Source of the DNA: a virus
Length of the DNA stretch: 40,066 nucleotides
UHGV virus genome: UHGV-0132701
Reading direction: 5' to 3' (one strand)
Part shown: in pieces, positions 29,212 through 38,833 of the stretch
Position numbering within the stretch: the stretch's first letter is position 1
Layout: the number at the start of each line of letters is the position of its first letter
Made by a program: the position numbers and the translations under genes
The notes under the pieces: generated by a model
Database searches by the model: none
What the model saw: only the letters and a program-made list of their open reading frames with translations
What the model was told of the DNA's origin: nothing

Positions 29212-30663
29212 TCAGAATCCTCCTTTCTTCTTGGACTGCGGTTCCTCGCGTTCACGGCGGCGCATTTCAGCAGACTGTTGGTCTGTGTCATAAATAGCGC
29301 CATTTGCCTGAATGCAATACACCGTGCCGGTATTGCCATGACGATTGAGACGAAGGATTAGTTCGGTTTCACCAGGTGGAACACTGTCATCAAAAGCACC
29401 TTCACGATGGATCCCCACCCAATAATCGCAATCCTGTTCAATCTGCCCTGTATCGCGCGAGTCACTTGGTAATGGGCGTTTATTGGTTCGGCTTTCCAGT
29501 GCGCGGTTAAGTTGTGTCAGAAGCACAACAACGCAATCAAGCTCTTTGGCAAGGTTCTTCAGTCCTTTGGTGATCATGCCGTAAGCAAGGTCGTTGCGAT
29601 CGGCCTTCTCAGCGGTCATTAGTGTCAGGTAATCGACCAGAATCATGCCAACACATCCTTTTTCTCGCTTGATTCGACGGCTTTCGCTGACGATTTGAGC
29701 CAGAGATAATCCCGGCGTGTCGTCGATGTAAAGCAGGTCGATTTCACTCAAGCGATTGGCTGTTTCGATCGCCCTGTTGAAGTCACCATCGTAATCACCC
29801 TGATAGCCGTCATCAGCGTCATTTGTCGCCGGAAGGTAAAAAATATTCGGGTTAACACCTGACTTCTGTCCCACCAGTTTTTCCAGTATCTGATCACCTG
29901 GCATTTCAAGGCTGAACATCAGAGCGGGCTTTTTCTCATGCACTGCGCAATTGATTGCCATCTGGCTGTATAGCGTCGTTTTCCCCATCTTAGGGCGAGC
30001 GCCAATGACAAACAGAGAGCCTTTCACCAGACCTTTCGGTGACAGCATCCTGTCCAGCGATGGGATCCCTGTGCTCATTCCCCGTTGTTCGCCTGATGGG
30101 TCAAATCGTTTCTCAAGGTCGCTAACCCAGTCTTCCATGACCTCACCAAATGAGCGAAGGCCGCGACGCGATCCGGTTTTTGCATGGTCTGTCAGTTGCG
30201 TGAAAATCGCCTGAATAGCTTCGTACTTCTGCGTTGCAGTCATTCCGTTGCGTGAATAGAGCAATTCCGTCGCTTCAGTCATGCGGTTGATGGCGTAGCG
30301 TTCCATTGCGGTTTCACGAACCTGCATTGCATAGGCAACGATGTTTGCGGCGCTTGGCGTGTTCTTTGCGATCTCAGCGATATAAGCAAAACCGCCAACA
30401 GACGCCGTTAACGATTTACGCTCCAGTTCATCGAAAAGCGTCAGGCCATCTACTGGCTTTTGCTCCCGGTGCATTCTGGTTATTTCTTCGAAAAGGATTT
30501 TGTGTGATCTGCTGTAAAATGAATCTGGCTTCAGCATCGCTAGAACTTTCTGGACGCACTCACTGCTGTCATCATCCAGAAGCAATCCACCAATCACCGC
30601 CTGCTCTGCCTCGATGCTATGGGGCGGCGCATAAAAATTATCGGTCATCGTGTTCACCCTCAC
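29212..30663 (-). CDS. Replicative DNA helicase, DnaB family (P22 gene 12-like)
   Basis: 483 aa; DnaB N-terminal domain (HSIEAEQAVIGGLLLD) and Walker A (GARPKMGKTT) / RecA-like core. Confidence 0.9.
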   Translation of the reverse strand: MRVNTMTDNFYAPPHSIEAEQAVIGGLLLDDDSSECVQKVLAMLKPDSFYSRSHKILFEEITRMHREQKPVDGLTLFDELERKSLTASVGGFAYIAEIAKNTPSAANIVAYAMQVRETAMERYAINRMTEATELLYSRNGMTATQKYEAIQAIFTQLTDHAKTGSRRGLRSFGEVMEDWVSDLEKRFDPSGEQRGMSTGIPSLDRMLSPKGLVKGSLFVIGARPKMGKTTLYSQMAINCAVHEKKPALMFSLEMPGDQILEKLVGQKSGVNPNIFYLPATNDADDGYQGDYDGDFNRAIETANRLSEIDLLYIDDTPGLSLAQIVSESRRIKREKGCVGMILVDYLTLMTAEKADRNDLAYGMITKGLKNLAKELDCVVVLLTQLNRALESRTNKRPLPSDSRDTGQIEQDCDYWVGIHREGAFDDSVPPGETELILRLNRHGNTGTVYCIQANGAIYDTDQQSAEMRRREREEPQSKKKGGF

Positions 30664-31537
30664 GAACTTTCAGGTAGGTATTGTCGTTAAGCAGGAAATC
30701 AAATCCCTTTTTGTGCCAGACGGTTCCGCGTTGATGGTTTGGGCGTTCTTCGAACATCCATCGGCAATTTTCGCCTACGTAGCTCAAATAATTTCTCCAG
30801 TCCTGCATCGTGAACCCATGCCCGTCAAGCTGGCGGGTTATCACTCCGGCTTTGCGCCAGAACGTTCGGATCTGGTTTTTACGCTTGTCATTCAGTGCGC
30901 GGATTTTTGGCGCTTCAGGAAGGATTTCGTGGTAAGCATCGACAACATCCTGACAGCTAACGGAAGGTTTTTTCTTGTCAGACTTTTTGTCTGCTGTGGC
31001 ACTCTCTAATACGTCAGTATTAGAGATAATATTATTATATTCTTTATCTGTGGTAATTTGCTGGTAATCTGCTGGTACAGTATTGCTTACAGGCATTGGT
31101 ATTTCTGGCTTTGAGGTGGTAATTTGCTGGTAATCTGCTGGTACAAAATTTGACTGATAATCGTCATATTTCTCTACCGAGAAAACTGAGAATTTACCGT
31201 GTGAAACCCAGTCAATCATGCCGAGTTTTTTGAACTTTCTAAGCAGGTACTGAACGCGATCTGGTTTGAGTCCTGTTTCAAACGCCAGAGAGTTTCTACC
31301 GCCAAGTAGCTTCCCTCTGCCTACCAGAATTTCTCCTGCGTCAGTCATTACATACTCAGGCGTATGCTTTGCTTTGAGGATTAAGTGAACCCACAGATGC
31401 GCAGCTTCTGCGTCCTTGTAAAACGGCACATCCATAATTTTACGGTGCAGCAAGGCATACCCCTTACCGCTGCTTTGATGCGGTTGTTGTAGCCTTCTGG
31501 CCTCTCTGGCTTCGGCTAGATTAGATATGTTACTCAT
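30638..31537 (-). CDS. Replication initiator, lambda O / P22 gene 18-like, with origin iterons inside the coding sequence
   Basis: 299 aa directly upstream of the helicase gene; internal tandem peptide repeat ([10 protein letters not shown]) encoded by DNA iterons; position after cII. Confidence 0.75.
31051..31145. repeat. Replication origin iterons: two copies of a 29-bp unit TGGTAATTTGCTGGTAATCTGCTGGTACA, each containing two GGTAAT(T/C)TGCTG half-repeats, next to an AT-rich tract
   Basis: Exact 29-bp direct repeat at about 31051-31079 and 31117-31145; AT-rich stretch at about 31021-31050; located mid-gene in the O-like initiator as in lambda ori. Confidence 0.7.
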
Positions 31538-31676
31538 GACCTTTCTCCTTCTGCATCAGCTTCACTTTTTCCAACTCAGCCCGGAATCGACCAGGCTGCT
31601 TGAAGCTGGACAGGAAGCGATCACGTAGTATGTGTTTGTGAATTTTGTCCTGGTAAGGACTGAGTGGTTTTGTCAT
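31530..31676 (-). CDS. Small hypothetical protein (48 aa) overlapping both neighbours, not in ORF track
   Basis: Translation [48 protein letters not shown]; start overlaps upstream stop and its end overlaps the initiator start (ATGA). Confidence 0.4.
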
Positions 31677-32080
31677 TAAGCCTCCTCTACTTCGTAATCA
31701 GCGAAGTAACCAGTAGACATTTTTAAAAACCTTGATTCGGTGACTGTGTAAGCCTTCCTTCCTTTCCTCTCCTTGCCTTCAGGCTCTATGAGGTGGCACG
31801 AATAAATGATTCTGCGCTGCCAGTTGCCTGGCATTTCCACCACTGCCAGAACCTCAAGAATTCTCTTTCCTTCAGCATCAGCGGTGTAAAAACACTGATC
31901 ACCATAACCACAATCGGCTGGCTCATAATTTTTGTGACAACCGCCAATCCAGCGCTCATCGGTATGCACGTTGCCGTCATAAGACTGATAATCTGTGCAT
32001 ACGAAGATAAATGGATATACGGTTTCGAACTTGTCACCGGCCTTTATGCCGGTGTTTACTTGCTTGGTTTGTCCTGGCAT
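31676..32080 (-). CDS. Hypothetical Cys/His-containing protein (134 aa) between cII and the replication initiator
   Basis: Start MPGQTKQ with RBS aggagt; upstream part of the six-frame ORF lacks an RBS. No recognised domain. Confidence 0.5.
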
Positions 32081-32114
32081 AATTACTCCTGTTACTTGGC
32101 GTAACACAGTGTGC

Positions 32115-32393
32115 TTAAGCGTCCAGACTGCTACCAACAGCTGGGCGTTTTTCTTTTGTGAGAATCGATGCCACCTGCTGAGCAAGTCTCGCCATCTCAT
32201 CATCAACAACTCCCCATTCAAGAACAGCCAGAAGCATGGCCATCTTTGGGATAAAGCTGTCTTTCCATCGCGAAATTTGCGATTCATTAATCCCTAACGC
32301 GTCGGCAACCTTTCGCTGACCACGTACAGCAATTCGATTCAGGATGTTGCTTGTAATTGCATTCGCTTTCTTGCGAGTACTTGTAAGTTGCAT
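32115..32393 (-). CDS. cII: Transcriptional activator CII
   Basis: ...RIAVRGQRKVADALGINESQISRWKDSFIPKMAMLLAVLEWGVVDDEMARLAQQVASILT... parallels lambda CII; upstream DNA contains the lambda-like TAAGGAAATACTTACATATG start context. Confidence 0.9.
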   Translation of the reverse strand: MQLTSTRKKANAITSNILNRIAVRGQRKVADALGINESQISRWKDSFIPKMAMLLAVLEWGVVDDEMARLAQQVASILTKEKRPAVGSSLDA

Positions 32394-32512
32394 ATGTAAG
32401 TATTTCCTTAGATAACAATTGATTGAATGTATGCAAATAAATGCATACACCATAGGTGTGGTTTAATTTGATGCCCTTTTTCAGGGCTGGAATGTGTAAG
32501 AGCGGGAATGTC

Positions 32513-32728: not shown

Positions 32729-32839
32729 ATGCCCTCCATAGTAACCTTGAAACAATAATACGATATGTACTTTTAGAATGCAAACAAAAAATACATCTTG
32801 TGCATGGATGGTTTTAGTACAGAGCGTAATAATAAGGAT
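32729..32839. promoter_or_regulatory. Right operator/promoter region (OR with divergent pR and pRM)
   Basis: AT-rich 110-bp interval between divergent cro and cI; candidate pR on minus strand (TTTGCA - 18 nt - TATTAT) upstream of the cro RBS; operator half-sites not confidently resolved. Confidence 0.6.
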
Positions 32840-33499
32840 ATGAAAATGAAATGGTATGAACTGGCTAGATCCAGAATGAAAGAGCTCGGCATAACTCAAG
32901 AGAAGTTGGCTGAAGAGCTTGGTATGACGCAGGGTGGAATTGGTCACTGGTTGCGCGGATCTCGTCATCCATCTCTTGACGAGATTGGTGTGGTGTTTAA
33001 ATACCTTGGTATTGATAACGTCTCATTCAACCACGACGGTACATTTTCACCTGTTGGCGAATACTCATCTGCCCCCGTTAAAAAACAATATGAGTACCCT
33101 GTTTTTTCTCATGTTCAGGCCGGGATGTTCTCGCCTGAGCTTAGAACCTTTACCAAAGGTGATGCGGAGAGATGGGTCAGCACAACCAAAAAAGCCAGTG
33201 ATTGTGCGTTTTGGCTTGAAGTTGAAGGTAATTCCATGACCGCACCAACAGGATCCAAGCCAAGCTTTCCTGACGGGATGTTAATTCTCGTTGACCCTGA
33301 GCAGGCTGTTGAGCCAGGTGATTTCTGCATAGCCAGACTTGGTGGTGACGAGTTTACCTTCAAGAAACTGATCAGGGATAGCGGTCAGGTGTTCCTACAG
33401 CCACTAAACCCGCAATATCCAATGATTCCATGCAATGATAGCTGTTCCGTAGTAGGGAAAGTTATCGCCAGCCAGTGGCCTGAAGAGACATTTAGTTAA
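32840..33499 (+). CDS. cI: CI repressor: S24 LexA-like autopeptidase domain identical in type to lambda CI, fused to a non-lambda N-terminal HTH domain
   Basis: C-terminal two-thirds ([134 protein letters not shown]) matches lambda CI; N-terminal domain ([37 protein letters not shown]) differs. Confidence 0.9.
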
Positions 33500-33992: not shown

Positions 33993-34325
33993 ATGGATGC
34001 ACAAACACGCCGCCGCGAACGTCGCGCAGAGAAACAGGCTCAATGGAAAGCAGCAAATCCCCTGTTGGTTGGGGTAAGCGCAAAACCAGTTAACCGCCCT
34101 ATTCTCTCGCTGAATCGCAAACCGAAATCACGAGTAGAAAGCGCACTGAATCCGATAGACCTTACGGTGCTGGCTGAATACCACGAACAGATTGAAAGCA
34201 ACCTGCAACGTATTGAGCGCAAGAATCAGCGCACATGGTACAGCAAGCCACGCAGTGAAATGGGTGTGACTTGTGTTGGTCGCCAGAAAATGAAATTAGG
34301 CAGCAAACCACTGTATGAGGGGTGA
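33993..34325 (+). CDS. N: Antitermination protein N (lambda type)
   Basis: MDAQTRRRERRAEKQAQWKAANPLLVGVSAKPVNRPILSLNRKPKSRVESALNPIDLTVLAEY... matches lambda N including the arginine-rich boxB-binding motif. Confidence 0.95.
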   Translation: MDAQTRRRERRAEKQAQWKAANPLLVGVSAKPVNRPILSLNRKPKSRVESALNPIDLTVLAEYHEQIESNLQRIERKNQRTWYSKPRSEMGVTCVGRQKMKLGSKPLYEG

Positions 34326-38171: not shown

Positions 38172-38833
38172 GCAAGATTGACTATCAGGTACTGCGTGAG
38201 GCAGCAGTAGCAATTGAAACAGTAGCAACGCCTCAAAAATTGCTGGCATTTCGTATGAAAGTCACACCTCAGGTTGTGCTGGCTCTACTGGATGAACGAG
38301 ATGCATTAAATGAACGCCTAGCCGAACTGGAGGCTGATTTAGCAGGGCTGGCCGAAGACCACCAGAAAGCGACTGAGTCAATTAAGCAGGCTGATGCAGC
38401 TGTTAAGTTGGCACACGAGAAGTTTTCGGCGCTGGCGGCGGAGAATGCGGGGCTGAAAGACACTCTATCAGCAGTGATTGACCGCAGTAACGAGCCTGAT
38501 TATCAAAGCATCGGAATGGGCTGTGGTGTTGAGGATAACGGTCTTCAGACTGACGGTTATAACGCCTGTGAATATGGATGGCGCGAAGCAATGGATCGCA
38601 TTTACTCAGAAGTTATTCCAGACACTATTCCTGAAACCCCGGCGACAGACGCCTTCCTGGCTGAAGTGCGGGCGCATGACCTCAACGCTTTCATTCGGCA
38701 TCACAGTGCAGAACTGGATGCGCATATTAAAAACGGTGGTGAGCAGTTCGACGAAAAATCAGTACGCATCAGAGACATCATCGTCTCAGCCCGCTTGTTC
38801 AGGGAGCAGATTCGCAAGGAGGCCGCCCAATGA
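38168..38833 (+). CDS. Ead/Ea22-like coiled-coil protein (GTG start)
   Basis: RBS GGAGG before GTG; central coiled-coil ([48 protein letters not shown]); position and character match Ea22-family genes of lambdoid early-left regions. Confidence 0.55.

Follow-up and report, generated by a model that had tools for sequence, protein, structure and literature searches.

The 40,066-nucleotide (nt) virus genome UHGV-0132701, the whole of which is called the window below, is a P22-like (Lederbergvirus-type) E. coli prophage in which two genes lie between cII and the O-like replication initiator: a gene of 134 codons, named X here, and a 48-amino-acid (aa) gene. Both are real genes and not chance open reading frames (ORFs). 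For X this follows from a ratio of nonsynonymous to synonymous substitution rates (dN/dS) of 0.03-0.05, from 188 cluster representatives and from a structural model with a mean predicted local distance difference test (pLDDT) of 94.6, and for the 48-aa gene from a match of 99.4 bits to the Pfam family DUF2740. The first-pass annotation had placed two additional genes in this interval and described it as empty in lambda; both statements hold: the genes are on the minus strand at the coordinates given, and in lambda cII ends at 38653 and O starts at 38686, with just a 32-nt gap between them. The explanation that we favour, with a probability of about 0.5, is that both are genes of the early rightward (PR) operon, that X is an exchanged accessory module whose product would act early as a stoichiometric binder, and that its 5' end hosts an oop-type promoter (Po). 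Two features seem worth recording: the confidently predicted but unmatched fold of X and, as the most concrete new point, the predicted oop promoter embedded in the 5' end of the gene. The features of the region are the following:

31676..32080, minus strand: gene X, 134 aa, family phrog_30464 (= HK639 gp53)
32086..32090, minus strand: Shine-Dalgarno sequence AGGAG of X (ctcct on the plus strand), 6 nt before the ATG, conserved in the alignment
31530..31676, minus strand: 48-aa gene, Pfam DUF2740 = P22 Orf48 / HK022 gp53 / HK620 HkaW
30638..31537, minus strand: O-like replication initiator, phrog_345
29212..30663, minus strand: DnaB-like replicative helicase, overlapping the end of O
32115-32393, minus strand: cII, Pfam Phage_CII, E 4e-43
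32463..32477, minus strand: lambda-type nutR boxB, GCCCTGAAAAAGGGC, between cro and cII, sequence read directly
32798-33499, plus strand: cI

The gene order is thus cI, cro, nutR boxB, cII, X, the 48-aa gene, the O-like initiator and the DnaB-like helicase, and the relevant genes around X are all on the minus strand, with cI on the plus strand. The boxB sequence GCCCTGAAAAAGGGC is identical to that of lambda nutR, and its position upstream of cII would place X in the N-antiterminated PR transcript, so that the interval would be transcribed past nutR/tR1. A lambda-like N gene (MDAQTRRRERRAEKQAQW...) lies on the other side of cI, at 33993-34325 on the plus strand.

Distribution, constraint and mobility of gene X

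Gene X starts with the ATG at 32080 and comprises 134 codons plus a TAA that ends at 31676. A 203-aa version of the ORF, starting inside cII, was rejected, as it has no ribosome-binding site and is unsupported by the homologues (HK639 gp53, Hafnia phage Meifeng). ORFs of 100-103 aa on the plus strand within X were likewise unsupported, and selection acts on the X frame. The product is soluble and mildly acidic, with an isoelectric point (pI) of 5.2 against a family median of 5.4. It matched a single family, phrog_30464 ("unknown function"), with E 2.7e-95 over positions 1-134 of 134. The same family was matched by all 65 diverse relatives of X, and no other family was found among them except for extra domains fused to single members. 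Scans of X and of its distant relatives against Pfam, NCBIfam and PADLOC returned no family for X or, fused extra domains apart, for these relatives, and the anti-phage defence hidden Markov models of PADLOC-DB matched neither X, nor Orf48, nor six distant homologues. A literature search found nothing on the X or Orf48 genes, and both were absent from the supplements of one 200-gene phage accessory-gene screen.

The rarity of X was directly observed. Among 50,697 phage records it is present in seven:

HK639 gp53, two records: 91% identity
Hafnia phage Meifeng: 78% identity
two Klebsiella phages: 82% identity
two Leptolyngbya cyanophages: 27% identity

Only two of 5426 complete E. coli genomes carry it, the flanking DNA of the cII/Orf48 region being matched in 1264, and in a set of 185,579 species, each represented by one genome, four X loci were found. 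A collection of 5.8 billion proteins contained 26 X clusters, all enterobacterial where the source names the organism. An exhaustive profile search retrieved 188 X representatives at E<=1e-3, mostly of 115-140 aa; the ten distant ones that were looked up are all metagenomic singletons. Judged from its cyanophage members, the family extends far beyond the Enterobacterales and is sparse throughout. The cyanophage homologue (L003 3019-3378 / L099 1519-1878; Leptolyngbya/Plectonema) lies among many small early genes, and one cyanophage record names it "SH3 protein", a label given by the depositor. Rare as it is, the gene is strongly conserved: its core of 120 residues is under strong purifying selection, with the above dN/dS calculated against HK639-type copies at a dS of about 0.7-1.0. 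Between X and more distant copies synonymous sites are saturated.

X is already catalogued as HK639 gp53 / phrog_30464. The HK639 protein (YP_004934083) has the same length as X, is 91% identical to it and is also encoded between a cII-like gene and an initiator, with an upstream oop-like element and a TAATG junction as in the window. HK639 differs in its 181-aa type of cII, in its DUF1376-type initiator and in having no Orf48 between X and the initiator.

To place the gene in context, 81 related loci were fetched (77 from IMG/VR and 4 from genomes), ORFs were called in 74 of them and in the window, and the neighbours were clustered. About 45 loci, including the window, HK639 and Meifeng, form class A, with the order cI, cro, cII, X, an optional DUF2740 gene, initiator and loader/helicase. 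In this class X lies downstream of three unrelated cII-like families and precedes at least three initiator families, namely O-like proteins (phrog_345), proteins of about 300 aa in the initiator position, and DUF1376-like proteins; these initiators are paired with P-, DnaC- or DnaB-type partners. Class B, the 131-aa Klebsiella type, comprises about 19 loci by gene context and 21 by an N-terminal criterion, and its usual order is O, P, a Ren-like winged-helix gene, an "ea-like" gene of unknown function, X and more unknown accessory genes. Distant homologues are also found in early regions of temperate phages, where their neighbours include ERF/YqaJ recombination genes, AAA_24/HNH/helicase/primase genes, LexA_DNA_bind together with a DUF1376 initiator, and DUF1064/DnaT-like genes. 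Three distant homologues (L086 6001-6843, P0072; L088 5001-5663, P0101; L090 1360-2037, P0098) carry an N-terminal extra domain. One of these domains is of the DUF3850/ASCH (PUA-like) type, one is a Cys/His-rich domain of about 90 aa (CDC...HH...SCCGH) that matches no family, and one is an unknown domain of about 90 aa.

The modularity of X is directly visible in phages that lack it. HK620, HK630 and vB_EcoP_phi296 match both flanks at about 94-95%, and exactly positions 31687-32142 of the window are missing. The left-hand junction is the TAATG at the start of Orf48, and the right-hand one is a conserved run, ACAAAAGAAAAA, near the end of cII (32115-32142), which is the T-tract of the antisense terminator described below. 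With the junction in ACAAAAGAAAAA, the last nine or so codons of cII would have been exchanged together with the X/oop module and would not belong to the HK620/Sf6-type body of cII. We propose that a module formed by the oop terminator hairpin, the oop body, Po and X (about 31677-32150) was inserted between an HK620/Sf6-type cII and Orf48. On this comparison of gene contexts, X is an autonomous, horizontally exchanged module at the edges of replication cassettes. A classical moron was considered and rejected: no promoter- or terminator-like site on the same strand flanks X, its stop and start overlap the neighbouring genes, and it lies in the repressed PR operon.

X belongs with the dispensable accessory genes of lambdoid early operons. 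It resembles lambda Ren and the other nin-region genes of the PR operon in being small, dispensable, sporadic, exchanged at gene boundaries and expressed with the replication genes, and in Klebsiella-type prophages it even adjoins a Ren-like gene; it differs from them in that no similarity of sequence or fold was found. The link to lysis-lysogeny regulation that the first-pass annotation had contemplated is disfavoured as a dedicated role, because X accompanies several cII and O types and also occurs away from cII.

A predicted oop-type promoter and antisense RNA between X and cII

Two features that are read on the plus strand lie across the start of X and the 3' end of cII:

32055..32083, plus strand: Po-like promoter, -35 box TTTACT at 32055-60, 17-nt spacer, TG-extended -10 box CATAAT at 32078-83
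32091..32158, plus strand: oop-like antisense RNA, predicted at about 68 nt, 5' hairpin 32091-32105, terminator hairpin 32117-32150, T-run to 32158

X takes its start codon from the CAT of the -10 box, and the -35 box falls in codons 7-9, where the Val-Asn pair of codons 8-9 is encoded as GTA-AAC. The predicted RNA, whose start we infer at 32091 by analogy with lambda oop, folds with a minimum free energy of -20.8 kcal/mol and overlaps the last codons of cII. An Rfam scan of the whole window matched no family, so that the assignment as an oop-like RNA rests on the comparison with lambda and P22. The geometry is that of lambda and the terminator lies at the end of cII, which points to a Po-type sigma-70 promoter and a predicted oop-like transcript at this site.

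In lambda, Po overlaps the start of O. The lambda cII-oop-O region has, as predicted for the window, a leftward promoter in whose -10 box, CATAAT, the gene next after cII has its start codon, a -35 box about 17 nt further inside that gene, and a short antisense RNA that ends inside the 3' end of cII. The two differ in the gene that hosts the promoter, which is O in lambda and X here, and in the 5' hairpin of the RNA, which is GTTACTTGGCGTAAC in the window. In P22 the same promoter and terminator are annotated around orf48. In P22, HK620 and mEp235 it is Orf48 that comes directly after cII and hosts the oop promoter at its 5' end; in the window X holds that position, and the start of Orf48 lies at the stop codon of X. 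The junction is a clear case of lambdoid mosaicism, the oop promoter being hosted by O, Orf48 or X, depending on which of them comes after cII.

The promoter/RNA element is present in every class A locus, and class B lacks the promoter, the RNA and also the N-terminal "xGQTKQVN" tail. The promoter geometry, which was directly observed, is kept in 31 distinct loci. At 30 of 31 distinct class A 5' ends the Val-Asn pair is encoded by GTA-AAC; the invariant Val113 uses all four Val codons, GTA accounting for 59%. Furthermore, in loci with a displaced -10 box (TATTAT or TATAAT, upstream of the ATG), the Val-Asn pair moves by one codon and the spacer stays at 17-18 nt. The constraint on the N-terminal tail of class A X proteins therefore appears, from these alignments, to come from the promoter and to act on the DNA: in cis, the first ten or so codons of X would carry the -35 box of oop, with the start codon lying in the -10 box. 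It should be noted that a deletion of X would also remove the -35 box of oop, which would make the lysis-lysogeny phenotypes of a simple deletion uninterpretable.

Predicted fold and possible roles of the X product

AlphaFold2 modelled X with a pLDDT of 84 from a 20-sequence alignment and of 94.6, with a predicted template modelling (pTM) score of 0.80, from the 65-sequence alignment. The model comprises seven beta strands (17-32, 38-46, 49-54, 61-67, 69-81, 90-98 and 110-114) and a short helix (115-122), and its lowest confidence is in the first ten or so residues. A Foldseek search against BFVD found just one unnamed member of the family; a hit to "Nucleotide modification associated domain 1" (E 0.03, TM score 0.29) was judged to be noise. 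The 65-sequence profile, run against the sequences of the PDB, gave a chance hit only (E 0.4). The model thus predicts with confidence an all-beta fold without a match in the PDB or BFVD, which is as far as this claim extends. The best structural neighbours were the hot-dog fold and SH3/Tudor-like barrels, with scores below the usual significance. Membership of the hot-dog superfamily was rejected, as there is no central helix, no significant structural match and no sequence signal.

The invariant columns of the diverse alignment are P23, G47, G71 and R90, and the nearly invariant ones G15, F24, W44, P100 and G102. Conserved positions are therefore mainly glycine, proline and aromatic, as expected for a scaffold or binding protein, and the scarcity of conserved polar residues argues against an enzyme. 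Together with the lack of a fold relative, this makes stoichiometric binding more likely than catalysis. X is most likely a non-enzymatic early binding protein. In the favoured explanation the product, compact, soluble and all-beta, would lack any recognisable relative in fold, would have hardly any conserved polar residues and would bind a conserved host or nucleic-acid target stoichiometrically early in lytic growth, its timing of expression, mode of binding and target all being deduced and not observed. Such binding could serve host takeover, counter-defence or replication, and would involve neither catalysis nor metal chemistry; X would be dispensable both for the cII switch and for replication by O/DnaB. 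Our order of preference is a host-takeover or counter-defence binder, then a replication accessory and, in third place, nucleic-acid binding. Three observations weigh against this explanation. Counter-defence genes evolve fast and less typically show purifying selection as strong as this, the repeated occurrence of X next to replication cassettes might reflect a role linked to replication instead of host takeover, and the fusion of one homologue to DUF3850/ASCH hints at nucleic-acid chemistry over protein binding. In its boldest form, which we regard as quite unlikely, X would found a structurally new family of phage early proteins that neutralise or redirect a conserved host factor, such as a replication-sensing defence or a host replication protein. 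If true, this would define a new class of host-takeover or counter-defence proteins, spread sparsely from enterobacterial to cyanobacterial temperate phages. As a rare, strongly constrained phage family with a confident fold and no solved relative, X is worth taking up in structural work and in screens for counter-defence or replication functions.

The strongest alternative, although on balance an unlikely one, is that X is a replication accessory factor that tunes the onset of replication through binding to the phage initiator, to the origin or to a replication protein of the host (of DnaB, DnaA or DnaK type). X lies directly before the initiator in about 45 loci and in the others just behind O-P-Ren-like genes, positions that would fit such a role, as would the DUF1376 initiator-like, DnaT-like, primase and helicase genes that adjoin the distant homologues. 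X is also translationally coupled to Orf48-O-DnaB, and strong purifying selection fits a conserved target. Nevertheless, the partners of X include at least three unrelated initiator families as well as loaders of both the DnaB and the P/DnaC type, a distribution that speaks against specificity for a single phage replication protein, and the large majority of phages whose O alleles are the same do without it.

A role in binding or processing nucleic acid, whether RNA or modified bases, appears less probable again. In its favour are the ASCH fusion, a weak resemblance to SH3/Tudor folds and the name "SH3 protein" that the depositor gave to the cyanophage homologue. Against them stand the acidity of the protein (pI 5.2), in which R90 is the only invariant basic residue, the fact that all fold similarities are below significance, and the singularity of the fusion, found once among 188 representatives.

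The first-pass annotation had read the scattered Cys and His residues of the 134-aa protein as a sign of metal binding, and this reading is corrected here. The peptide that it quoted corresponds to residues 28-63 of X. The window copy has five Cys and several His, its near relatives among the enterobacterial proteins retain C48, C57 and C95, and X adjoins cII, all of which would suit a Cys/His metal-binding regulator of the cII/O decision. However, the absence of conserved metal ligands was directly observed over the 65 diverse sequences: Cys48 is moderately conserved (Cys in 44 of the 65), C57 and C95 are kept among the close relatives only, C28 and C63 are not conserved, and the His residues vary, the position of His49 being occupied by H, R, K or N. 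In addition, X contains no CxxC or HxxH knuckle motif and matches no metal-binding family of Pfam or NCBIfam. In the model C48 and C57 flank opposite ends of one beta strand, and are therefore unlikely to share a metal. About 21 loci also carry X far from cII. A regulator of this kind is very improbable. The last alternative, that X is not functional as a protein and that its ORF persists only as a carrier of the oop promoter, can practically be dismissed: the -35 box in codons 7-9 is indeed conserved at the nucleotide level, but the amino-acid constraint covers the whole 120-residue core, class B homologues have no promoter at all, and the fold is confidently predicted.

The 48-aa gene and the surrounding prophage

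The 48-aa ORF runs from 31676 to 31530. Its ATG shares one base with the stop codon of X (TAATG), and its own stop overlaps the O-like start by 8 nt (ATGAGTAA), as the stop of Orf48 overlaps the initiator start in P22, HK022 and HK620. Because of these overlaps, the two genes together with O and DnaB form a coupled chain of four, with translation passing from X to Orf48/DUF2740, O and DnaB. The product matches DUF2740 (PF10872) over the full model (positions 1-43 of 43) with 99.4 bits, where the cut-off is 27, and is 83-98% identical to P22 Orf48, HK022 gp53, HK620 HkaW and mEp235 gp43. By tblastn the gene is present in 127 phage records, and in every row listed with an annotated neighbour it lies under or beside the replication initiator gene. 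By homology it is an ordinary P22-type Orf48, a small basic peptide (pI 10.1) of a family to which no function is assigned. Half of the first-pass finding is thus a long-catalogued gene: the 48-aa ORF proved to be a common conserved hypothetical, the outcome that the annotation had named as counting against it, and X is a conserved hypothetical of a rare kind. RefSeq records of HK620, HK630, mEp235 and other phages label DUF2740/Orf48 homologues as "tail protein", a label whose source is phrog_1913. Since Orf48 sits in the early operon and abuts the replication initiator, this looks like a propagated annotation error.

The structural genes of the prophage are similar to those of IME10 and of Sf6/HK620-like phages, and its early region to those of mEp235, HK75 and HK620. 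Positions 1-25000 form a P22-like podovirus half (IME10-, HK620- and Sf6-like portal, terminase, coat and tailspike genes) and the early region has its nearest relatives in the siphoviruses mEp235 and HK75, a typical lambdoid mosaic. Inside the O-like gene there is a direct repeat of 31-35 nt, with two copies that are 94% identical (31050-31084 and 31116-31150). Each copy contains internal TGCTGGTAAT sub-repeats, and the same 10-residue stretch is encoded twice in the O protein. These repeats are probably the iterons of the replication origin, as in lambda, where ori lies inside O.
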